Shown piece by piece: positions 4,080 to 22,518 of a DNA stretch of 24,364 bases (position 1 is its first letter; each line of letters begins with the position of its first letter). Below the pieces are notes generated by a model. That model was not told where the DNA came from. It did not search any database and saw only the letters and a list, made by a program, of their open reading frames with translations. A program made the position numbers and the translations under genes. The DNA comes from a virus (taxonomy: Duplodnaviria > Caudoviricetes): positions 1 to 24,364 of the IMG/VR virus record IMGVR_UViG_3300021961_000614. The stretch is one strand, 5' to 3'.

Positions 4080-4250
4080 ATGCTAAGTCCCAACATCGAG
4101 CTTGACGGGGAGTACATCGAGGGCTTTAGCGCGGGCTTTCGCTTTGCCCTGATCGAGGTTGGCTTTCACCTACGCAAGGAGCGCTTCCCTCCCGAGGTAA
4201 TCCAGAGGATTAATGAAGTCCTTGCGTACCTGAAGGATGCGGACAAATGA
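4080..4250 (+). CDS. Small hypothetical protein (56 aa, MLSPNIELDGEYIEGFSAGF...)
   Basis: Below the ORF-track cutoff. AAGGAG RBS, ATG 4080, TGA 4248-4250 overlapping the next ATG. Confidence 0.75.
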   Translation: MLSPNIELDGEYIEGFSAGFRFALIEVGFHLRKERFPPEVIQRINEVLAYLKDADK

Positions 4251-4732
4251 AAAAGACGTTCGGGACCATCGGTCTAAGCGAGTTGCCGCCCTCCATCCGA
4301 ACCCTCTGGCATACCCGCAACGACGAGTTGCCAACTGAGGAGTTTGATTGCCTGCCCGATTGGATGGCTCAGAAGCCACCAGAAGGGCTTGAGAGCCTCG
4401 ATATGGAGCGGGTGGTGGTCTATGTACTGTCCACCATCACGGTGCGCGAGGAGACCACTTTAAGGCTTCGTATCGGGCACAGCATGACGTTAGATGAATG
4501 CGGCAAGGTTCTGAACATAAGTAGAGCGCGAATAAGCCAGATCGAAGCCAAGGCTCTACGCAAGCTACGCCACCCTTCCCGCACAGACATCTTAGCGTTG
4601 GCCTTTGACCTTCCTTCTGGCTACGTCAAATTGCGCAAGAGATGGGATTGGCCGAGGGACATTGAAAAGTACGCCGAGTGGAAGAGAAAAAAAGTCGCCC
4701 GCAAGAGCCTGTCCGAAGGCGCGTTGAGATAA
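4247..4732 (+). CDS. Stand-alone sigma-70 region 4 domain protein
   Basis: [12 protein letters not shown]...[33 protein letters not shown] closely follows RpoD region 4 ([29 protein letters not shown]); no region 2 is recognisable. Confidence 0.85.
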   Translation: [161 protein letters not shown]

Positions 4733-6453: not shown

Positions 6454-7026
6454 ATGCCCCGCAAAAGCCCTAAAACAGCCTCCAAGGCGTTGGAAGCCCC
6501 TGACCAAGGGGTAGACACCAGCACCGAAGAAAAGCTGCCAGAAGCCCCGAAAAAGAGGATTGGCAGGCCTCCCAAGTACACGCCCGAACTTGCCCACGAG
6601 ATCTGTGTGCGCCTAAGTGATGGCGAACCCTTGCGCAAAATCTGCCGTGACGACCACATGCCGACATGGGCGGCGGTGTATCAGTGGATGGATCGTGACG
6701 AAGATCTTTCTTTAGCCATCGCACGAGCACGGGAAGCTGGGCAAGACGCAATGGCCGAGCGGGCTTACGTCGAGATGTATGACGAGCCTGAGCGGATCCT
6801 GACTGAGGGTGGGGGCAAGATTGACCCGGGGTATGTGCAGTTGGTCAAGGCCCGGGCTGAGATCACCCTGAAGATGCTTGCCAAGTGGAACCCCAAGCGT
6901 TACGGGGACAGGGTGCAACTGGCCGGGGACGCGGAGAACCCGCTCAAGGTCGAGGCTGACCTGACCATCTTTGACGCCCTGATCACGAACATCGAGACCA
7001 AGCGCCAGACCAAGTCGCATGGTTGA
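6454..7026 (+). CDS. terS: Terminase small subunit (Sf6/P22-like HTH)
   Basis: GRPPKYTPELAHEICVRLSDGEPLRKICRDDHMP...W and LAKWNPKRYGD motifs; overlaps the terL start. ATG 6454 is preferred over 6202. Confidence 0.9.
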   Translation: MPRKSPKTASKALEAPDQGVDTSTEEKLPEAPKKRIGRPPKYTPELAHEICVRLSDGEPLRKICRDDHMPTWAAVYQWMDRDEDLSLAIARAREAGQDAMAERAYVEMYDEPERILTEGGGKIDPGYVQLVKARAEITLKMLAKWNPKRYGDRVQLAGDAENPLKVEADLTIFDALITNIETKRQTKSHG

Positions 7027-9346
7027 CCCGCTGATTGCAGCGCTCAAGGACGAGGAAGTCCGCCGTAAGTACGCCCTGCTGCCTCCAGAGAGGCGGGCTG
7101 CGTTCGATTGGCGGGCTAAGTGGCTGTCCAACGCCCATGACCACCAGATCCTTCCCCCGGGCGACTGGTGGACGATCTGGCTGCTTTTGGCAGGCCGGGG
7201 AGCGGGCAAGACCCGTACCGCTGCCGAGCAGATCGGCTGGTGGGCTTGGGAGCAGCCGGGGACTCGCTGGCTCGTAGCCGCCCCTACCTCGATGGATGTG
7301 CGCTCTACCTGCTTTGAGGGTGAGTCAGGGCTGCTGGCTGTCATCCCCGAGATCCTGATTGCCGACTACAACCGGGCGTATCACGAGATCAAGCTAACCA
7401 ACGGGTCGCTGATCAAGGGTGTACCTGCCTCGGAGCCTGAGCGCTTCCGGGGTGGTCAGTATCACGGGGCTTGGCTGGACGAGTTGGCCGCGTGGGAGTA
7501 CCTGCAAGAGGCGTGGGACATGATCATGTTCTCGGTTCGCCTAGGGACCAGAACCCGCATCCTTGCCACCACAACGCCTAAGCCCAAGGACTTGATCATC
7601 GAGTTGATCGGCAGGGAGGGCGACGACGTTCACCTCACGACCGCGTCAACCTACGCCAACCTCGATCACCTAGCGCCAAGCTTCAAGAAGCAGATCCTGC
7701 AGTACGAGGGCACCAAGCTGGGCCGTCAGGAGATCTACGCCGAGATCATCGACCCAGAAGAGGGTGGCATCGTCCAGAGGGAATGGTTCAAGCTCTGGCC
7801 TGCAGAAAAGCCCCTGCCGAAGCTAGAGTTCGTGATCCAGTCCTATGACTGCGCCTTTACCGAGAAGGCCCACAACGACCCGACGGCTGCAATCACCTTC
7901 GGGGTCTTCAAGCCGATGGATGGCGGGATGTCTGTCCTGATCATGGACTGCTGGCAAGACCGGCTGCAGTACCCCGACCTCAAGCCCAAGGTCATCGACG
8001 AGTACGAGACCGTCTTTGGGGAGGGCAAGGACAAGAAGCGGGTGGATCTGGTGCTAGTCGAGGACAAGGCCGCAGGGATATCCCTGATCCAAGACCTTCA
8101 GAGGGCGCATGTCCCGGCAAGGGCGTACAACCCGGGCAGGGCTGACAAGATCCAGCGCCTGTCGATCGTTGCCAACATCATCAGGGCCGGAAGAGTCTGG
8201 GTGCCAGAGTCAACGAACCGTAAGGGCTATGTAAGGGACTGGGCCGAGGGCATGGTCTCGCAAGTGTGTTCTTTTCCCAACACTGACCATGACGACTTCT
8301 GTGTGGATGCAGATTCCTTGGTGGCGATGGCTGACGGGTCGTTCAAACGGATCGCTGACGTTGTTGTTGGGGAGATGGTCAAAACACCAGCCGGTTCAAG
8401 AAGGGTGGTGAAGGTTCACGAAAACGGGATCAAGGAGGTTTGGAAGGTTCTGGCTAATGGGCGCGAATTGCTTGCTACAGCGAATCATGAAGTGTTCACA
8501 GACAAAGGCTGGGTAAGGATTGATTGCTTGAGTCAGGCAGTCCATAATGTATGCGTCAACGAAAGGGGTGGCGCATGGCATTTCAAAGGAAGCTTGGGAT
8601 TGCGGTGGAGTCGGTTGTCTTCAATGGCCGCAGGTATAACCGGTACCCTGAAAGCAGCAATCCAGCGCATCGGCGGTACTTCGCCCGGGCTGGGCACAGG
8701 CTCCATCGAGATGTGTGGGAGTTTTACAACGGCCCGATCCCACGAGGGATGCACATCCATCACATCGACGGGGACACGACAAACAACGAGATTGCCAATC
8801 TGGAATGCGTACCAGAAACGGACCACAGGAGGCATCACGGCGCTTCAGAGCGAACAGATAAGCAACGCCAGCACCTTGAGTCCATCAGGCCTAAAGCAGC
8901 GCAGTGGCACCGATCTGAAGAAGGAAGGATTTGGCACAGAGAGCATGCCAAAGCGTCTCTGGCAAAGACTTGGGGAAAGCCTCGGGCGTTTCCTAGCCTC
9001 GCCTTCCAGTGCTTTTGGTGTGGCTCTAAAGCGCAAGCAAAGTCCAAGCTCAAGCGATTTTGCGGGACGGCCTGCCAATCTGCAGAGTCCAAGTTTCGTC
9101 TCGGTAAAAGCCGTACACAACACCCACACCATGCGGCCAGTGTTCGACCTGACGGTGGAGGGTGAGCACTGCTACTACGCCAACGGAATCCTTGTGCATA
9201 ACTGTGACGCCCTGTCGCAGGCATTGCGGTACTTACGGGATGCAGGCTTCCTGAACATCGACCCGCCCCCGCCAGACTATCTGGACGAGGAGGACTACAT
9301 CGATGCGGGAATGTCTCGCAGGACAGAGAACCCCTACGCGGTGTAA
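7019..9346 (+). CDS. terL: Terminase large subunit precursor containing an intein (about 474 aa after splicing)
   Basis: Walker A AGRGAGKT, Walker B AWLDELAAW, coupling motif TTTP; nuclease residues QSYDCA, VEDKAAG, and HDDF|CDALSQAL, which is split by the intein. Confidence 0.95.
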   Translation: MVDPLIAALKDEEVRRKYALLPPERRAAFDWRAKWLSNAHDHQILPPGDWWTIWLLLAGRGAGKTRTAAEQIGWWAWEQPGTRWLVAAPTSMDVRSTCFEGESGLLAVIPEILIADYNRAYHEIKLTNGSLIKGVPASEPERFRGGQYHGAWLDELAAWEYLQEAWDMIMFSVRLGTRTRILATTTPKPKDLIIELIGREGDDVHLTTASTYANLDHLAPSFKKQILQYEGTKLGRQEIYAEIIDPEEGGIVQREWFKLWPAEKPLPKLEFVIQSYDCAFTEKAHNDPTAAITFGVFKPMDGGMSVLIMDCWQDRLQYPDLKPKVIDEYETVFGEGKDKKRVDLVLVEDKAAGISLIQDLQRAHVPARAYNPGRADKIQRLSIVANIIRAGRVWVPESTNRKGYVRDWAEGMVSQVCSFPNTDHDDFCVDADSLVAMADGSFKRIADVVVGEMVKTPAGSRRVVKVHENGIKEVWKVLANGRELLATANHEVFTDKGWVRIDCLSQAVHNVCVNERGGAWHFKGSLGLRWSRLSSMAAGITGTLKAAIQRIGGTSPGLGTGSIEMCGSFTTARSHEGCTSITSTGTRQTTRLPIWNAYQKRTTGGITALQSEQISNASTLSPSGLKQRSGTDLKKEGFGTESMPKRLWQRLGESLGRFLASPSSAFGVALKRKQSPSSSDFAGRPANLQSPSFVSVKAVHNTHTMRPVFDLTVEGEHCYYANGILVHNCDALSQALRYLRDAGFLNIDPPPPDYLDEEDYIDAGMSRRTENPYAV
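8300..9202 (+). mobile_element. Intein (301 aa, residues 428-728 of the TerL precursor)
   Basis: Block A CVDADSLVAMADGSFKRIADVVVGEMV, block B LLATANHEVFT, block F VFDLTVEGEHCYYANG, block G ILVHN/C. Removing it restores HDDFCDALSQAL. Confidence 0.95.
8575..9165 (+). CDS. HNH homing endonuclease nested out of frame inside the intein (196 aa)
   Basis: LHRDVWEFYNGPIPRGMHIHHIDGDTTNNEIANLECV...H (HNH_3 type) plus a C-terminal CFWC...FCGTAC zinc finger; own RBS-like AAAGGGGTG before ATG 8575; frame offset +2 from terL. Confidence 0.88.
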   Translation: MAFQRKLGIAVESVVFNGRRYNRYPESSNPAHRRYFARAGHRLHRDVWEFYNGPIPRGMHIHHIDGDTTNNEIANLECVPETDHRRHHGASERTDKQRQHLESIRPKAAQWHRSEEGRIWHREHAKASLAKTWGKPRAFPSLAFQCFWCGSKAQAKSKLKRFCGTACQSAESKFRLGKSRTQHPHHAASVRPDGGG

Positions 9347-9347
9347 G

Positions 9348-9538
9348 TCACCCTAATTTAGGGTGAAAAGTAACGTGATGTACATCGCGTCATTTTGACG
9401 TTATCTAGTTATCGTCACTTTCATACCCCCGACCCACCAGTCGCCCCGACCGAGAGGTCGCCCCGACCCGCGGGTCGTCACCCCAATATCCTCCCTGTTT
9501 AGGGTGAAAAGTGACGCTATCTAGTTAACGTCACTTTT
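9348..9538. repeat. Cluster of palindromes and direct repeats flanking three 17-bp iteron-like units
   Basis: TCACCCTAA-T-TTAGGGTGA (9348-9366); GATGTACATC (9377-9386); TTTAGGGTGAAAAGTRACG at 9357 and 9498; TGACGYTATCTAGTTAWCGTCACTTT at 9396 and 9512; three CCCCGAC-N6-GTCG units (9427-9477). Confidence 0.85.
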
Positions 9539-9571
9539 TCGGAAAGGTGAGGGGGTTTTTCTGAACGATAC

Positions 9572-9599
9572 TTGCAGTGAGTCTGCAGTTTGATATAAT
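9572..9599 (+). promoter_or_regulatory. Strong sigma70-type promoter
   Basis: TTGCAG (9572-9577), 16 bp, perfect TATAAT (9594-9599) with an extended -10 TG at 9591-9592. Confidence 0.75.
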
Positions 9600-9605
9600 T
9601 CATCT

Positions 9606-10090
9606 GTCTGGAGTGGCATCCGGGCGATGAACAAATAGGCAAACCCCGCAGGGTACTGTGTGGTCTTGTCGTACAGCAAGCGAGTCTTTTGACCTATTTG
9701 TTCAATCGCCTTGTTGTTGCTCCCGCCAAGAGCCAAGACCACAGAGCATCTTGCGGGGTTTTTGCTTTTGGCGCGGACAAGACGGGAGTCAGGTTGATCT
9801 TGACTTGTAGGCATGGTCTCCATGTCGAAACCAGTAATGGCACCGTAGTCAGGGCGCTTTAGCTAACGGGGCAGAAATCTCCCGCACCCAGATACAGACA
9901 ACCGTTTCAGCAAGACCCAACTGAAACGGGCCAGCCTAGGTTGAGGGACTGGCGCAGGCATGCTTGATAGGTGACGGCCCCGTTGCAAGCATCCCGATGA
10001 ATCAACCCGTCCAGCGCACTTGGCCCGGTCAGGATCAGAAGAATCCCCCGGGCGGAGAGTGAACCTCCAGCAGGGTCACCCGGGGAAGCT
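9606..10090 (+). ncRNA. Long structured leader or non-coding RNA with C4-like alternative pairings
   Basis: Starts just after the TATAAT box. Complementary segments 9623-9639/9693-9710, 9641-9668/9734-9761 and 9721-9733/9764-9777; further hairpins at 9902-9929, 9960-9992 and 10046-10085; no credible CDS. Confidence 0.55.
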
Positions 10091-10145
10091 ATGCACACAG
10101 AGAACAAAGCGGCATAATCAAACAAATTCCGCCCTGAGGTTTGCA

Positions 10146-13100
10146 ATGGCACTACCCTCTGACATCCCGACCCCTGAGAACCTTGAGCGCAGCCGACAAC
10201 AAGTCGAAGAAGAGCAGCGCAGAAAAGCTGAAAGGGATGCCAAGCTTTCCCCGCTTGATAAGGCCTTCGGTGCTTACGAGGCTGCAAGAACAATTGGATC
10301 GGCGCTGTATCAAAATGCCGCATCATTTCCAACTTTCCTGTCTCAGGGTCAGGAAGCTGCAGACAAGCAGGTTGCCGAGAGGATGTTCATTCCCAAGACA
10401 GAACAGGGGATGGACTACCTGCAAAACACCGGGCAGTTCCTAGAAAAGCTTGAGACCGAGTACAAGATCCCGCCGGTTCTTCCGCAGGTGGCTGCGCTGG
10501 AAGGGATCGCAGGACCGGCAATAAAGCAGGCGGCTCGTGCTGCTGGCGAGGCAATGCCACCGATGAGCGGATCTGGTGTAAGAGGGCTGGCTTATCAGGA
10601 AGGGGCAATCAAGCCTTTTGGGGGCCAATGGTTCAAAGATACTATCTTTGATAAACCCTCAGATAAGCAACCGCACCTGCAGGCTCTTGAGAGGGATTTG
10701 CAAGATCCAAACATCTCTGCAGCGAACAAAGAGATCCTGCAGCGTCAGTACACCCATTTGAAGAACACTGACGCCCTGAAGCGCTGGGAAAAGGGCAACC
10801 TTGCCAATTACATCAAGAACAAGATGGGGACGCCGGAAGACCCGATACGGGAGCTTGCGGAAAGAGGGATAACGCATATCCCGCAAGATCCTGATTGGAA
10901 CGAATACGTTGCTATCCCGCAGTCAGTTGCAAAGAAACGTCAGGAAGCTGGGTTCCCCGCTGAAGGGGTTGGTAAGTCTCCACTGGCAAGACTTTGGGAG
11001 TCAATGGCTGACGAGGCTATCTTCCCGGAGAAGGCATCAACCTACCAAGCAGCCTCGCAGGCTAGGGGTCGGCTTTCTGAGATGCAACCTGATTTGGCTG
11101 CTGGTGTAGAAAGGGTTAACCGATCATTTGAAGAAAGCCTGAGAAACTCTGGTCTTCCAGCATCGGAAGTTAAAAACCGAAGCCTTTATACCCATGTTGC
11201 GGACAAGGCAAGGTTAGTTAAAGATAAGGATTTTGAATCTTTGTGGGGTGAGCAAGACAGGCTCAATAAAATATTAAGTGGAACTACTGGTTATATTGCA
11301 AAGCAAAACCCTTGGATTTCAAAGTTAGATCCCGATGAGCCGGTATATCGTGCAAAGATCCGCAATCTAGGGTTTGACCATGTTTTGGACGTTTTGCGCG
11401 AGGATATGAATGCTGGTCGCATTCGTCCCGATCAACTCAACAAAATGAGCATTGAAGATGCCATCAAGCGTACCCATGAGTACGACCAAGCGATGGCAAA
11501 GAAGATGCGCGAGACAACCGCCGCTGTCCGCGAGGGTTTGCCGGTCTACAAGCAGTACCCGGAGGGATACCGCTGGATCGAGCTAAACAAGCCCGGATCG
11601 TTCGCGCACGAGTCCGACATGATGGGGCACTCTGTGCGTGGCTACGAGCCTCCTAAGGGCCACGAAGACTGGGTGGAGACATCCAAAGACTACGGCAGTG
11701 AGGGTTACGGTCACGGTGGTTGGGATGCCATTAAGAGCGGCAGGGCCAAGGTCTACTCGCTGGTAGACGAGAAGGGTGAGCCGCATGTGACGGTGGAGGT
11801 TGCGAAAGACTCTCCCAAGAAAAGTGATTTGGAGCGTCAGCCGCAAGAGGTGCAAAATGAATTCAACCGGCTGCTTGATAATTGGTTAAGCAATTTGGAT
11901 TACCGTCCAAATCAAGAAGATTATTTAGAAAAAACAGACCAACTATTTAGACATCTTGGAATAGATACAAAGCCGTATATTTCACAGATCAAAGGCAAAT
12001 CAAACCAAGCGCCAAAAGAAACCTACCTGCCGTTCGTGCAGGACTTCGTGCGGGGCGGGAAGTGGTCTCAGATCAATGACACTCGCAATGCTGGCCTGCG
12101 TCGATATGGCGATGTGTTTAACGTCAACGAGCAGCGCAAGATCGAGTCTTTGGGCGGGAATGTGCCTGACCATGAGTGGCTGACCGGCGAGGAGATTCAG
12201 CAACTGCACAACCTGATCACGCCGGAAGGCGGTCGCCTGAAGTACGACTCCAAGGGCAACATCATCGGCGGAGATGGCAAGAGCGGCTACAAGCAAGGCG
12301 GCAAGGTTCACATCTCCAGCAACCCTGACACGATGCGTATCGAATTGGCTGAAGGCAAGAAGATGCAGTTTGGTGGCATCGCAAAAGCCGCAGCCAAGAG
12401 CGCAGCTAAAGCCGCGAAAGAAGCGCCATCCGTTGTCATTCCGAGCAAGGTTAGCCAACTGCAGGAAGCCATCCGCCAAAGCAAGGGTGAGTACGGCGCA
12501 AAGCGAGTTCAACGCGCTGCAGATGAAATCAAGAACCTTGAGCAGATGTATCAAGAGGAGGCATTGCGCCAAGCATTTTCTGGGGATAACGCCAAGGCTT
12601 TGGTGACAATGAACCCGGCGGACTTTGAGAAATACGCCGTTGAGTTGCAAAAGCGCACCGAAATTGGCCCGGAAATGGCCAAGTTAGCCCAGAGCGGTGA
12701 GATTGATAAAAGCATCATGACAACGGATGAATACATCCGGCACTTGCTTAACCTGCAAGGCGGGTTTGCCGATATCCCGTTCCTGTCTTTGTTTAAGGAC
12801 GAGGTTGGCGTACCAGTCAAACCGCAAGTGAGAGGCCATGAGGGGCGGCACAGAAGCCGAGCTTTGGCACAAAGAGGGGAGCCGTCCAGTCTTGTAACTG
12901 TTTTCCCGCGTGGAGATTTGCGTGAAGCACTGCCGCGCAGGTCGCAAGAGGAGTACATCGAGGCGCTCAAAGAAGAGATGGAAAGGTCTGGTCGTCTTGT
13001 GATGCCTGAGGTTGAGGGCTCGTTGCGCCGCCCAGCGATTGAATTCCCCGATGTGTACGCTGAAGGCGGAAGCGTCAAGATGCAGTTTGGTGGCATCGCA

Positions 13101-15173
13101 AAAATCTCAGCTAAGAGCGCAGCTAAAGCCGCCAAGGCGATCGAGCCTTCGCCTGCTAGTGAATCAGCCCAGAACCTGAAGAAGTTTCTTGAGGGCAGCA
13201 AGGTTGTGGATGATGAGGGCAATCCGTTAAGGGTTTATCACGGGACGGAGGGGGAAGATTTTGGTTCATTCAGGCCCGCGTCGTTCTTTACGACGCACCC
13301 TCAAGAAGCCTCTGCTTACGCCAATGATATTGAATTTAGCAGACGGAATAGGGGCTTGAATAGGTATAGTCTTGTCTCTTCGCCAGATGAATTGTCTGGT
13401 ACGAAAGTTCCGTATTCAAATGATATTGATGCCTTCCCAATTGGAACCGTCGTGGCGACCGACAACGGAGTATTTAAGCGTCGCAAAGGTGGATGGGACG
13501 TTTTTGACGATCTTGACGTTGATTACGATAGTTTCAACCTAAAAGACGATAATATCCGCGTCGTGAAGGGCGCGGGTGAAAGTGCCCGCAAATGGGTTGA
13601 CAGGCATCGTGAAGACGTAGTCAAAAGTTTTCCCGGCGGAGAAGGTGGTCGGGTTATTCCGGTCTATCTGTCGATGAGAAATCCTGTGCATTTGGGGCCG
13701 CTTCAGGCAAACAAGCTCGGCCTGCGGCTTGGCGCGACTGAAGAAGATATACGCAAGGCTATCGATAAATATTCAAGGATGGGATATGACGGAATAATCA
13801 CGGAGAGCGATGAAGCGACGATGTTTGATGAGGTGCGCGAGTTCTTTGGTGGAATTCCTGATCAATACATTATTTTTCGCCCAGAGCAGGTCAAATCCGC
13901 CATCGGCAACCGTGGAACATACGACATCAACGATCCTGACATCACCAAGGCTGGTGGTGGGCCGGTGAAGATGGCTGGGGGTGGAAGCTTTGCCAAATCT
14001 TTGGCGAAGCTGGCCCGTGCTCAGGCAAAGAGCAGGCAAGAGATTGATGCGATCGCTGAACGCATAGCTCCTCAAGTGACCGGCGAGTATGTGCGGGAGT
14101 CTGACAAGAGCGCAAGGACTGTTGCTGGCAAGACTCAGAAGCAGTTTGAGCGCGAGAAGGATCTGCCGGTTGATATCAGGCCAGACGTTGAGCAAAAGGT
14201 TCCGGCTCCTGTAGACATCGAGAGCCTCAAGGGAAGCGTGATGATCGGCATTCCCGGGGATCCGACGGTAACCGCTCAGACCTTGCATGGCGTTGGGGAT
14301 GTGAAGCTGAAGTCGCCCTCTCCGCAGCATGGAGGCCCGCTGTACGGTCTATACGGCGATCCTGAGCACTTCTGGGCATCTGGGCTGGGTGCAGCCTCGC
14401 GGGTGCAAAACCTCGCAGAAGAGGCCGGTAGGCAGTATGACGCCCCGGTTGTTGGCAAGTACGTCATGATGGGTCCGGAATCCATCAATTACGCCCAGCA
14501 CTTTGCTGATGCCAACCTGCAGGCGATTGATACGCGCAAAATGACTCGTGAGCAGATTGAAGGGTTTAACGAGTTAATTCGTAAGGGAAACCCCAAATCT
14601 GGCCCAAGGCCCTCTTTCCCCGGCATTCAGGATAAGGGAGGCGCATACTTGCACTTTTCTGTAGATCCTGAACTTCGCAAGCACTTCAATAGCCTGATGC
14701 AGCAGCCTACTGTTGTTGACCAATTTGGGCTTCCAAGCGGGCAAGATATCCGCATGGCAATTACTGAGCCTGCGCTTAGGAATTTGGAGACTGGGGTTAC
14801 CGGGTTTTCAATGGGCCGAATGAAGCCGGAAGTTAAAAAACAAGACTTGAGCCTATCTCCGCACCCAACGTATAGCCACGATATTCCGGGCGAGTTTATT
14901 GGGCAGTCAAAGTATCCTGTGCCGTATGAGTTAAGCTTCCCTGATACCTTGAAGGCCATCCGCGAGAATCCGAAGCAAGCTCCGCAGGAATTTGGATCTC
15001 TGAAAATGGTCGGCCCGCGCCAAACCATTGATCAGCAGTTGATCGATGAAATAAAGATGTACGAAGAAAAGATGAAACGTCTGACTGGCAAGAAAAAGGG
15101 CGGGGCGGTGAAAAAGCGCAAGGTAAAGATCTCCAATAGCCGGGATGCACACTTCTTGGCTTCTTTGGACTGA
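10146..15173 (+). CDS. Large polyvalent protein (about 1675 aa): PcfJ-like, ParB-like, ADP-ribosyltransferase (ART-PolyVal type) and unknown modules
   Basis: GAGGT RBS before ATG 10146. PcfJ-like motifs ESDMMGHSV..Y, KVYSLVDEKGEPHVTVEV and ISQIKGKSN (about 11600-12060); ParB/Srx-like GHEGRHR (about 12835-12855); ART motifs SKVVDDEGNPLRVYHGT, FFT, VIPVYLSMRNP, GYDGII and FRPEQVKSAIGNRGTYD (about 13190-13945). Confidence 0.85.
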   Translation: MALPSDIPTPENLERSRQQVEEEQRRKAERDAKLSPLDKAFGAYEAARTIGSALYQNAASFPTFLSQGQEAADKQVAERMFIPKTEQGMDYLQNTGQFLEKLETEYKIPPVLPQVAALEGIAGPAIKQAARAAGEAMPPMSGSGVRGLAYQEGAIKPFGGQWFKDTIFDKPSDKQPHLQALERDLQDPNISAANKEILQRQYTHLKNTDALKRWEKGNLANYIKNKMGTPEDPIRELAERGITHIPQDPDWNEYVAIPQSVAKKRQEAGFPAEGVGKSPLARLWESMADEAIFPEKASTYQAASQARGRLSEMQPDLAAGVERVNRSFEESLRNSGLPASEVKNRSLYTHVADKARLVKDKDFESLWGEQDRLNKILSGTTGYIAKQNPWISKLDPDEPVYRAKIRNLGFDHVLDVLREDMNAGRIRPDQLNKMSIEDAIKRTHEYDQAMAKKMRETTAAVREGLPVYKQYPEGYRWIELNKPGSFAHESDMMGHSVRGYEPPKGHEDWVETSKDYGSEGYGHGGWDAIKSGRAKVYSLVDEKGEPHVTVEVAKDSPKKSDLERQPQEVQNEFNRLLDNWLSNLDYRPNQEDYLEKTDQLFRHLGIDTKPYISQIKGKSNQAPKETYLPFVQDFVRGGKWSQINDTRNAGLRRYGDVFNVNEQRKIESLGGNVPDHEWLTGEEIQQLHNLITPEGGRLKYDSKGNIIGGDGKSGYKQGGKVHISSNPDTMRIELAEGKKMQFGGIAKAAAKSAAKAAKEAPSVVIPSKVSQLQEAIRQSKGEYGAKRVQRAADEIKNLEQMYQEEALRQAFSGDNAKALVTMNPADFEKYAVELQKRTEIGPEMAKLAQSGEIDKSIMTTDEYIRHLLNLQGGFADIPFLSLFKDEVGVPVKPQVRGHEGRHRSRALAQRGEPSSLVTVFPRGDLREALPRRSQEEYIEALKEEMERSGRLVMPEVEGSLRRPAIEFPDVYAEGGSVKMQFGGIAKISAKSAAKAAKAIEPSPASESAQNLKKFLEGSKVVDDEGNPLRVYHGTEGEDFGSFRPASFFTTHPQEASAYANDIEFSRRNRGLNRYSLVSSPDELSGTKVPYSNDIDAFPIGTVVATDNGVFKRRKGGWDVFDDLDVDYDSFNLKDDNIRVVKGAGESARKWVDRHREDVVKSFPGGEGGRVIPVYLSMRNPVHLGPLQANKLGLRLGATEEDIRKAIDKYSRMGYDGIITESDEATMFDEVREFFGGIPDQYIIFRPEQVKSAIGNRGTYDINDPDITKAGGGPVKMAGGGSFAKSLAKLARAQAKSRQEIDAIAERIAPQVTGEYVRESDKSARTVAGKTQKQFEREKDLPVDIRPDVEQKVPAPVDIESLKGSVMIGIPGDPTVTAQTLHGVGDVKLKSPSPQHGGPLYGLYGDPEHFWASGLGAASRVQNLAEEAGRQYDAPVVGKYVMMGPESINYAQHFADANLQAIDTRKMTREQIEGFNELIRKGNPKSGPRPSFPGIQDKGGAYLHFSVDPELRKHFNSLMQQPTVVDQFGLPSGQDIRMAITEPALRNLETGVTGFSMGRMKPEVKKQDLSLSPHPTYSHDIPGEFIGQSKYPVPYELSFPDTLKAIRENPKQAPQEFGSLKMVGPRQTIDQQLIDEIKMYEEKMKRLTGKKKGGAVKKRKVKISNSRDAHFLASLD
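12360..13132 (+). repeat. 56-bp direct repeat pair (12360-12415 and 13077-13132) bracketing the ParB-like module
   Basis: AAGATGCAGTTTGGTGGCATCGCAAAA...AAGAGCGCAGCTAAAGCCGC, 52/56 identical by manual comparison; encodes KMQFGGIAKxxAKSAAKAAK. Confidence 0.9.
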
Positions 15174-17852: not shown

Positions 17853-18034
17853 GATACGTCTCCGACCTCGTCGCCGCAATTAAGGCGCGTCAAGCTGAAA
17901 TAAAGCTGTCTCTAGCAGCGGGAAACCCTGCGACATGGGAGGCGTACCAGCGCGTCGTTGGTCAACATCAGGGGCTTGAAGAAGCTCTTGAAATCCTAAA
18001 CAACCTGTTGAAGGAAGAAGATGAAGATGAATGA
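17849..18034 (+). CDS. Small conserved head-cluster protein
   Basis: L..G....WEAYQRVVG...GLEEAL pattern, typical of the small gene between portal and GroES in such phages; ATGA coupling. Confidence 0.8.
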   Translation: MRYVSDLVAAIKARQAEIKLSLAAGNPATWEAYQRVVGQHQGLEEALEILNNLLKEEDEDE

Positions 18035-18461
18035 ACCGGAAGCGTTTAGCGACGCTGACATTGCTTGGGCATTCCCGAGTGTAGACCCCGGTGCGAAACC
18101 TCTTGGCGGCAGAATTCTTGTGCAATTGCGCCGCACAAAAAAGAAGGCAACCAGTGCCGGGATTATCTTGGTTGAAGAGACTAAGGAAACCGAAAAGTGG
18201 AACAACATGGTGGCGAAAGTCATCGAGATTGGTCCGATTGCCTTCCGCAACCGAGATACGAACGAGTCATGGCCTGAGGGTTCTTGGTGTTCGGTCGGTG
18301 ATTTCATCCGCGTCCCAAAGTGGGGCGGCGATCGCTGGGAAGTTGCTGTCCCGGGCGAGGAAGATGGCATCGAAGACCCTGCGCTATTCATGATCCTGAA
18401 TGACCACGAGGTGATCGCCAAGGTCACTGGAAACCCGCTAGTCATGCGGGCGTTCATCTAA
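18021..18461 (+). CDS. GroES-like co-chaperonin
   Basis: KPLGGRILV, TSAGIILVEETKE (mobile loop), AKVIEIGP, VGDFI...KWGG and ILNDHEVIAKV motifs. The start could be 18021 or 18027. Confidence 0.85.
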   Translation: MKMNEPEAFSDADIAWAFPSVDPGAKPLGGRILVQLRRTKKKATSAGIILVEETKETEKWNNMVAKVIEIGPIAFRNRDTNESWPEGSWCSVGDFIRVPKWGGDRWEVAVPGEEDGIEDPALFMILNDHEVIAKVTGNPLVMRAFI

Positions 18462-21978: not shown

Positions 21979-22518
21979 ATGGGCTATGCCGTTTACATCG
22001 TAACCAATGTTGTTAATGCTAAGCAGTACGTTGGCATTACCAATAACTTGGGCATTCGATGGAAACGGCATAAAAAAGCTCTTGGTGAAACACCTCTTTT
22101 GCATAGAGCCATCAAAAAATACGGGAAGGAATTTTTTGTGTTTTCCCACATTGCTGATGCTTTTGACAAAGAGGCTGCTTTTGATCTTGAGAGGATTCTG
22201 ATTGAACAGCACAATACTTTTTATCCAAATGGTTACAACTTAACCAAGGGGGGAGAAGGTGGTGCTGGCGCTAAGATCGGAAGAGTGCTATCCAAAGAGA
22301 CAAAGAAAAAAATTTCTGAATCTCTTAAAGGCAAGCCAAGCCCAAGAAAGGGCGCAAAGTTGTCTGACGAAACAAAACAAAAGTTGCGTGAGTCAAAAGT
22401 TGGCAAGCCGAGCAAAAGACTTGGATATAAGCACTCCGAAGAAACTATTGCAAAAATCAGAGCGCAAAAAATAGCCCGTGATCTTCTTAAAAAAGTAAAG
22501 GAAACTGAAAATGTCTAG
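21979..22518 (+). CDS. Free-standing GIY-YIG homing endonuclease with NUMOD3-type repeats
   Basis: AVYIVTN..NAKQYVGIT, RW.RH, LE..LI and NGYNLT.GG motifs; repeats LSKETKKKISES, LSDETKQKLRES and HSEETIAKIR; clearly AT-richer than its flanks. Confidence 0.92.
   Translation: MGYAVYIVTNVVNAKQYVGITNNLGIRWKRHKKALGETPLLHRAIKKYGKEFFVFSHIADAFDKEAAFDLERILIEQHNTFYPNGYNLTKGGEGGAGAKIGRVLSKETKKKISESLKGKPSPRKGAKLSDETKQKLRESKVGKPSKRLGYKHSEETIAKIRAQKIARDLLKKVKETENV

Follow-up and report, generated by a model that had tools for sequence, protein, structure and literature searches.

The window, by which we mean the whole stretch of 24,364 nucleotides analyzed here, is a 24.4-kb phage record that represents a fragment of a genome. 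In addition to an O-like initiator, it encodes a P-like loader, RusA, small and large terminase subunits, a polyvalent protein, portal and capsid. The element of interest, hereafter the cassette, lies inside an 800-nt gap (9347–10145) flanked by the following genes; the initiator is listed because it is needed further below:

1309–1968: full-length O-like initiator
7019–9346, + strand: terminase large subunit (terL) with an intein, the upstream neighbor (Pfam Terminase_6N/6C, Intein_splicing)
10146–15173, + strand: polyvalent protein with ART-PolyVal domains, the downstream neighbor, with the portal gene next (Pfam PF18760; PHROGs)

The window also carries a sigma-70 region 4 protein (4247–4732), a GroES-like co-chaperonin (18021–18461), and a GIY-YIG/NUMOD3 homing endonuclease 3' of the capsid genes (21979–22518). 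The terL intein (8300–9210) sits near the C-terminus, and is apparently absent in L428, L325, L429, and L431. Between terL and the promoter, the stretch at 9347–9560 is rich in repeats, with a 26-nt inverted pair (9396–9421 and 9508–9533), a 32-nt near-palindrome (9507–9538), and three 17-nt CCCCGAC units (9427–9477). It looks like protein-binding or packaging sites; it is missing from five other loci where the cassette follows terL.

The cassette itself is an RNA of ~165 nt that begins with a 5' hairpin, continues into a three-way cloverleaf (the b/b' stem, a loop bearing a', and a CGCCA loop), and ends in a U-tract. The labels A1, B0–B2, and P0–P3 were coined in this analysis. Its parts are:

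9591–9599, + strand: extended -10 promoter-like site TG-n-TATAAT (TG 9591–9592, TATAAT 9594–9599), from the sequence
9606–9625, + strand: 5' hairpin P0, loop GUGGCA (9613–9618) complementary to the P3 loop; 4/7 pairs changed on both sides
9628–9639, + strand: address word a, a hypervariable, putatively single-stranded target; 60 distinct words in 96 elements, mean identity 0.31
9641–9668, + strand: 5' arm of P1 (b); 7/23 pairs compensatory, 98.8% paired
9673–9717, + strand: P2 stem (9673–9683 with 9706–9717) with a large loop exposing a' (9693–9704); 4/10 pairs compensatory, 96.7% paired
9719–9733, + strand: P3 hairpin, loop CGCCA (9724–9728), overlapping segment c of the original prediction; 99.4% paired, invariant
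9734–9769, + strand: 3' arm of P1 (b', 9734–9761) and U-tract (9759–9769), a terminator-like end by U count and minimum-energy fold
9764–9771, + strand: c' core, complementary to 9726–9733; conserved, no covariation

Transcription from the promoter-like site is predicted to start near 9605–9606; the site was not among the matches of a strict promoter scan of the window. The predicted folding energy of the 172-nt stretch is -78.4 kcal/mol (z = -5.83), and none of 200 shuffled sequences was equally stable. A covariance model scored 178 bits on the + strand versus 39 on the - strand, in agreement with the original prediction of a + strand RNA, and found a single copy in the window. The segments proposed there were also correctly placed: the TATAAT (9594–9599) and the 5' hairpin (9606–9625) are present, a and a' share a perfect 12-bp core (9628–9639 with 9693–9704), and b pairs with b' over 28 nt (9641–9668 with 9734–9761) at 86% complementarity. 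The covarying stem P2 and the hairpin P3 had been overlooked. This matters for the proposal that the long helices are mutually exclusive or pseudoknotted: an extended a/a' helix and c/c' do exclude b/b', but on an intact cloverleaf, where P2 displays a' in its loop, a can still reach a' and form a loop pseudoknot. As for c/c', an 8-bp core survives (9726–9733 with 9764–9771), whereas the two outermost pairs are disrupted in 44 and 50, respectively, of 67 aligned sequences. None of the ten c/c' pairs is compensatory among these 67 sequences, although covariation could hardly show since one side is fixed by the search motif. The c' core, one G of which is missing in several relatives, could lock the read-through fold. 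We rejected a coding explanation of the cassette because its open reading frames are inconsistent between relatives.

Using a 21-nt motif from the window, we found 119 loci in IMG/VR, and we estimate that the collection holds ~340 such stretches. Including the window, 120 copies were retrieved; 117 have the 5' hairpin in view (three are cut off) and reduce to 97 distinct elements with a median pairwise identity of 77%. Being related, these sequences are not independent samples, and all family counts below should be read accordingly. A -10 hexamer lies 16–18 nt 5' of the hairpin motif in 96/96 elements with enough flank, versus 13% of random positions, with an additional -35 or TG in 38/96. All 97 elements have at least five U among the eight nucleotides after P1. 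In an alignment of 67 of the 97 elements, the cloverleaf (P0+P1+P2+P3) has 96.9% of its cells paired, whereas slid controls reach only 37–49%. Compensatory changes occur at 15/45 pairs versus 10.1 in shuffles, of which 1/500 scored as high, and RNAalifold counts 10/43 compensatory pairs. P3 and part of P1 are uninformative for covariation as they were fixed by the search motif, which explains the invariance of P3; by eye, the P3 stem is nevertheless kept in variants found independently of that motif. Complementarity between the P0 and P3 loops is supported by one event, a compensatory change in L376 versus L406 that was noted by eye, and suggests a second loop-loop pairing.

Comparison with Rfam returned nothing at gathering level in the window or in relatives (20, 16, and 10 loci). 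The 5' hairpin had been predicted to resemble that of C4; no C4-family match reached gathering score, and the sole resemblance in the window was to isrK, aligned over this hairpin at 15 bits (E = 1.4) against a gathering score of 50. Two relatives carry an int-alpA RNA 3' of the cassette (L002 1912–1984 and L079 1804–1877). BLAST against GenBank phages and PLSDB plasmids gave nothing meaningful. A scan of GTDB with a 17-mer gave 80 loci, of which only one was real; it lies on a 2-kb MAG contig, and therefore no host was found. L003, one of three loci from a pattern search, proved to be a chance match, and a further pattern search yielded one unrelated locus. We found no published description of the family in the literature; the alignment files of PMC10690425 and PMC5737381 might hold one, and motif searches of seven supplementary files of PMC10690425 gave no match. 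In eight RNA sequencing runs, contigs at a depth of 2–15 were too shallow to show RNA ends. One 178-nt contig spans the U-tract (9724–9900, one difference) and the other contigs are relatives with other addresses, but we did not count them as expression because DNA carry-over is possible. Altogether, the folded RNA is real and uncatalogued.

The least conserved parts of the element are a and a' (identity 0.31 and 0.45, versus 0.84–0.85 for P1). Both are hypervariable and yet complementary, changing in step across phages. In 96 of the 97 distinct elements, the a:a' duplex averages -18.4 kcal/mol for own pairs versus -8.2 kcal/mol for foreign pairs, and a pairs best with its own a' in 85/96. Among scaffold pairs that are at least 95% identical but have different a', own pairing beats swapped pairing in 251/261, with a median gap of 17 kcal/mol. 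By cross-pairing, the 96 elements fall into 51 address groups. A metagenome scan added eight loci, of which L433 is identical to the window at the cassette, and L427 and L428 have other addresses. The latter two share with the window the promoter and 28/28 positions of b, and over the next 360 nt they are nearly identical to it (358 and 357 matching positions), whereas a matches at only 8/15 positions. Own duplexes of the window, L427, and L428 range from -17 to -21 kcal/mol and cross duplexes from -4 to -9 kcal/mol. Near-identity outside the address indicates that members of one phage lineage swap addresses as whole units; the three strains differ mainly in address. L427, L428, and L433 are also the only loci to have the window's spacer between the U-tract and the downstream RNA (9774–9840), which contains two small hairpins and an 11-codon ORF.

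We searched for a further target of the address downstream. A repeat of a at 10102–10114 was considered as a b2-like target and rejected, since it is unchanged in L427 and L428 where the address differs. More generally, no second copy of a rose above controls within 1.4 kb downstream (6.94 versus 6.93 nt, 64 loci), hence the second target of the C4/CI arrangement is at most half present.

Next, we followed the predicted folding path, computed as the equilibrium folding of shortened transcripts without pseudoknots rather than as kinetics. Before b' is made, the nascent RNA is predicted to form the long a/a' helix in 95/96 elements; this helix is prolonged by pairing of the 5' loop with 9715–9722 and encloses b. 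Once the U-tract is reached, the cloverleaf is the minimum-energy fold in 96/96, at a median of 16 kcal/mol below the a/a' trap. After read-through, the a/a' plus c/c' fold is the minimum in only 10/96, the window included. The flanks of the a/a' helix covary (6/9 pairs) and its 5' extension is invariant; covariation is absent from the small inner hairpins of the trap. Covariation, the folding path, and the weak isrK match of the 5' hairpin together support alternative folds, a terminator-like stem with a U-tract, and a C4/CI-like antisense design, as originally predicted.

On this evidence, the cassette is probably a conserved, self-addressed leader RNA of uncultured phages that attenuates transcription under antisense control, much as P4 CI and P1 C4 do. 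We propose that the a/a' helix forms first on the nascent RNA and, by enclosing b, would keep the more stable terminator from forming in time. Polymerase would then continue into the pseudoknotted RNA downstream and, in most relatives, further into a truncated initiator gene. Terminated and processed cloverleaf RNA would accumulate and, acting in trans, pair with a and with the hairpin loop of newly made transcripts, thereby blocking the trap and causing termination. The outcome might be a self-limiting early burst, together with a shut-off of co-infecting phages that have the same address only. The folding calculations suggest a kinetic read-through trap that an antisense RNA of the same address would defeat, a design like that of P4 CI or P1 C4. 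The cassette probably allows each phage to halt transcription of a second structured RNA just downstream while it ignores relatives with a different address.

The folding result does not by itself require an RNA acting in trans. A switch acting only in cis, in which the a/a' trap sets a fixed or protein-tuned read-through fraction while the address drifts by neutral compensation, would account for it, and would agree with the absence of a second target downstream (64 loci) and of an evident processing site. Nevertheless, the sequence of a/a' diverges much more rapidly than that of the other helices, and the address is swapped as a block between loci that are otherwise 99% identical. Both observations fit selection against cross-talk better than drift, and we regard a purely cis-acting device as improbable. 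The polarity might also be reversed or post-transcriptional: the long transcript might be activated by the cloverleaf or by the 5' part once released, or a/a' might serve only to mask the antisense loop of a precursor that has its target at another site. The only Rfam resemblance (15 bits) is indeed to isrK, whose short form activates its long form in trans in the account given in PMC4825925, and pairing of a with the a' loop is compatible with an intact cloverleaf. Since neither an ORF nor a ribosome-binding site follows the U-tract, and a copy of a was not found within 1.4 kb downstream, we consider this arrangement very unlikely.

Antisense control of the C4/CI type has been found in a few temperate phages of enterobacteria, where it serves lysogen immunity, and C4 is reported to be released by RNase P at the GG start of P1. 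C4 has been described as a three-stem RNA with two antisense loops, one of them variable and specificity-setting, that match upstream sites, and in P1/P7 the specificity depends on 4 nt (PMC5320573). The cassette resembles C4 (RF01695, c4-a1b1) in having three stems (P1–P3) that expose two antisense loops, which are complementary to upstream sites and of which one is variable and specificity-setting. By contrast, it does not match RF01695, c4-a1b1, or c4-2 at gathering score, its closing stem is 23–28 bp long and ends in a U-tract, and it measures ~120 nt versus ~77 nt for C4. Moreover, P1 lacks the GG start, beginning with A or C in the alignment, and no downstream copy of the variable word (1.4 kb, 64 loci), adjacent ribosome-binding site, or gene start follows the U-tract; its relatives lack repressor and integrase. 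We conclude that this family of probable C4/CI-like attenuators is real and uncatalogued, and stands outside C4 by Rfam score and by its missing downstream target.

In P4, CI is an antisense RNA from the leader itself and terminates transcription prematurely, ahead of the replication genes, through pairing with seqA (PMC4825925). The cassette would share with P4 CI/seqA/seqC an antisense RNA from its own leader and, according to fold calculations, a termination design. It differs in that the seqC-like site is limited to an invariant 8-nt core, that the terminator is made from the closing stem of the antisense RNA itself, and that there are dozens of address groups in apparently non-integrating phages. 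In the case of Gifsy-1 IsrK (RF01394, a SeqA homolog), the 5' hairpin with its UGGCA loop aligns to the consensus at the sub-gathering score given above, but IsrK acts in trans to switch on translation of an ORF, and the cassette has no such ORF.

The original prediction placed the polyvalent-protein and head operon under this switch. Directly 3' of the cassette, the DNA is instead non-coding and belongs to several families of structured RNAs, B0, B1, and B2, which show no mutual homology by nhmmer. In the window, this interval contains:

9845–10093, + strand: structured RNA of family B1, ~250 nt, with a kissing-loop pseudoknot (9939–9944 with 10002–10007); covariation, and 84 bits by nhmmer with a profile that included the window itself
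10091–10118, + strand: a further promoter-like site, ATGCAC-16-CATAAT, upstream of the polyvalent gene; consensus match only

Compensatory changes affect 24/33 pairs of B1, which is 98.4% paired in 28 sequences, and the 6-bp kissing loop is paired in 28/28. An open frame spans just 4/44 copies, and we rejected a coding explanation here too. The B modules tested had no match in Rfam; this includes STAXI (RF01728), a comparable motif of tandem pseudoknots that sometimes occurs near c4 RNAs (PMC2864571). In the same slot before B1, we found by eye at least four other, unrelated hairpin-plus-terminator leaders (L355, L375, L398, L395, L430, L434, L325), each of them built from a 5' hairpin, an inner word that changes in step with its complement, and a terminator-like stem, and likewise lacking an Rfam match. 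Attenuator and downstream RNA are therefore interchangeable modules. B0 (e.g. L014 1555–1775) is a chain of covarying stems in which an internal loop word repeats, in direct orientation and with covariation, the word that follows the 3' end of the module (shared run of 7.5 versus 3.3 nt, 29 word pairs). No internal complement of this word was found (0/39), so the loop word could pair only with the opposite strand. The direct-copy signature was not found in B1 (6.1 versus 6.3 nt, 47 copies).

We then surveyed 80 loci with long flanks, of which the 73 with at least 900 nt downstream were used for the context count. In 59 of these, the cassette leads into a gene for a truncated initiator of ~120 aa; in one it follows that gene, in four it lies between terL and a cargo gene as in the window, in one before terS/terL, and in eight elsewhere. 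The ~120-aa protein matches only positions ~170–270 of the 288 of a replication-initiator family, i.e. the C-terminal domain. Among 102 longer relatives, several have DUF1376 or HTH_36. The predicted fold of the truncated initiator (pLDDT 77) had no match in the PDB (best Z 4.7) and is uninformative. For the converse count we took the best 80 of 575 truncated-initiator loci, a choice biased toward the query. All of these best 80 have at most 67 open residues upstream of the truncated initiator; 55 have the present RNA family there, 20 another leader plus B1, and four are cut off inside the B module. The remaining one, L403, has no leader or B RNA within 720 nt upstream. The truncated gene is present in 15 of 20 longer records, none of these 15 encodes DnaB, and none of four complete truncated-initiator genomes has a match to the N-terminal part of the initiator. 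Full initiators occur in three genomes where the cassette lies elsewhere, as well as in the window. Integrase was absent from 20/20 longer records, the 13 near-complete ones included, as was an S24 (CI-type) repressor from 14 records of relatives (0/13 in the near-complete set), so classical lysogen immunity does not apply.

What the attenuator gates in the window's own phage might still be the polyvalent-protein and head operon; B1 would then be a leader or an antiterminator comparable to HK022 put. The cassette heads a gene block in both contexts, and a separate promoter-like site follows the B module in only 3/42 loci of the initiator context, where the downstream genes probably depend on read-through. 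Against this, the window has its second promoter-like site at 10091–10118, even though only 1/6 terL-type loci pass the same promoter scan, and in L425 and L197 the cassette is located directly 3' of the truncated initiator. The separate ~250-nt RNA after the U-tract and the rarity of the terL-cargo position (4/73, versus 59/73 before the truncated initiator) further weaken the head-operon part of the original prediction, of which the alternative folds and the antisense design are supported. We judge head-operon gating to be a possible but doubtful output; it is compatible with an antisense-controlled attenuator and differs in the output only. Because the cassette stands before a non-coding RNA rather than a gene, we propose that RNA as the gating target.

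The position of the cassette ahead of an initiator reduced to its C-terminal domain (59/73) raises the possibility of an RNA-primed origin. In lambda O, domain layout assigns origin binding to the half that is lost here. On that view, lytic phages would have in the cassette a replication origin that is specified by RNA and gated by antisense pairing. The attenuator with its address would meter a pseudoknotted RNA, and this RNA would enter its own template to serve as an R-loop primer, in place of the lost origin-binding half of a lambda-O-like initiator. Address words might define incompatibility groups when phages co-infect, and the copy after terL in phages like that of the window might be a relocated one, retained as a second or late origin. 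A precedent is ColE1, in which a stretch of RNA pairs with the template DNA strand to give a priming R-loop (PMC4412123, PMC5043065). Like ColE1 RNA I/RNA II, the cassette would involve an antisense-controlled long non-coding transcript, and the B0 loop word is able to pair only with the opposite strand, but the antisense RNA is from the same strand rather than counter-transcribed. Short look-alike words had suggested homology to ColE1 RNA II; nhmmer --max of B0, B1, and B2 gave nothing above shuffles, and we discarded this idea. Cassette position, initiator truncation, and the direct-copy word of B0 count for an RNA-specified origin; the lack of ColE1 homology, the lack of a copy in B1, and the normal initiator in the window's phage count against it. 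The association of cassette and truncated initiator could also reflect the shared ancestry of one phage group. The GC-skew minimum, which cannot separate replication from transcription, lies at most 1 kb from the cassette in 3/4 truncated-initiator genomes, whereas in 3/3 genomes with the cassette elsewhere it tracks the initiator region instead. The latter argues against a relocated cassette as the main origin, and overall we consider the origin proposal unlikely.

If an antisense-controlled attenuator is what the family encodes, C4/CI logic would extend to hundreds of uncultured phage contigs, including near-complete members without integrase or CI-type repressor. Dozens of addresses that are predicted not to cross-react, swapped between near-identical strains, could be a code for kin recognition or superinfection in lytic phages, and the natural address series is potentially a ready set of orthogonal RNA attenuators. 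Should the B RNA replace the DNA-binding domain of the initiator, a common phage group would have a plasmid-like, RNA-primed origin.

Two further observations concern existing records. L014 (1788–2150) and 575 viral stretches encode the stand-alone C-terminal domain of a YdaU/O-like initiator, in phages of ~35 kb without helicase, integrase, or CI-type repressor. In a GenBank phage (L425, MW202484.1, 4400–4790), the leader and B1, directly 3' of the truncated initiator gene, are annotated as a hypothetical protein.
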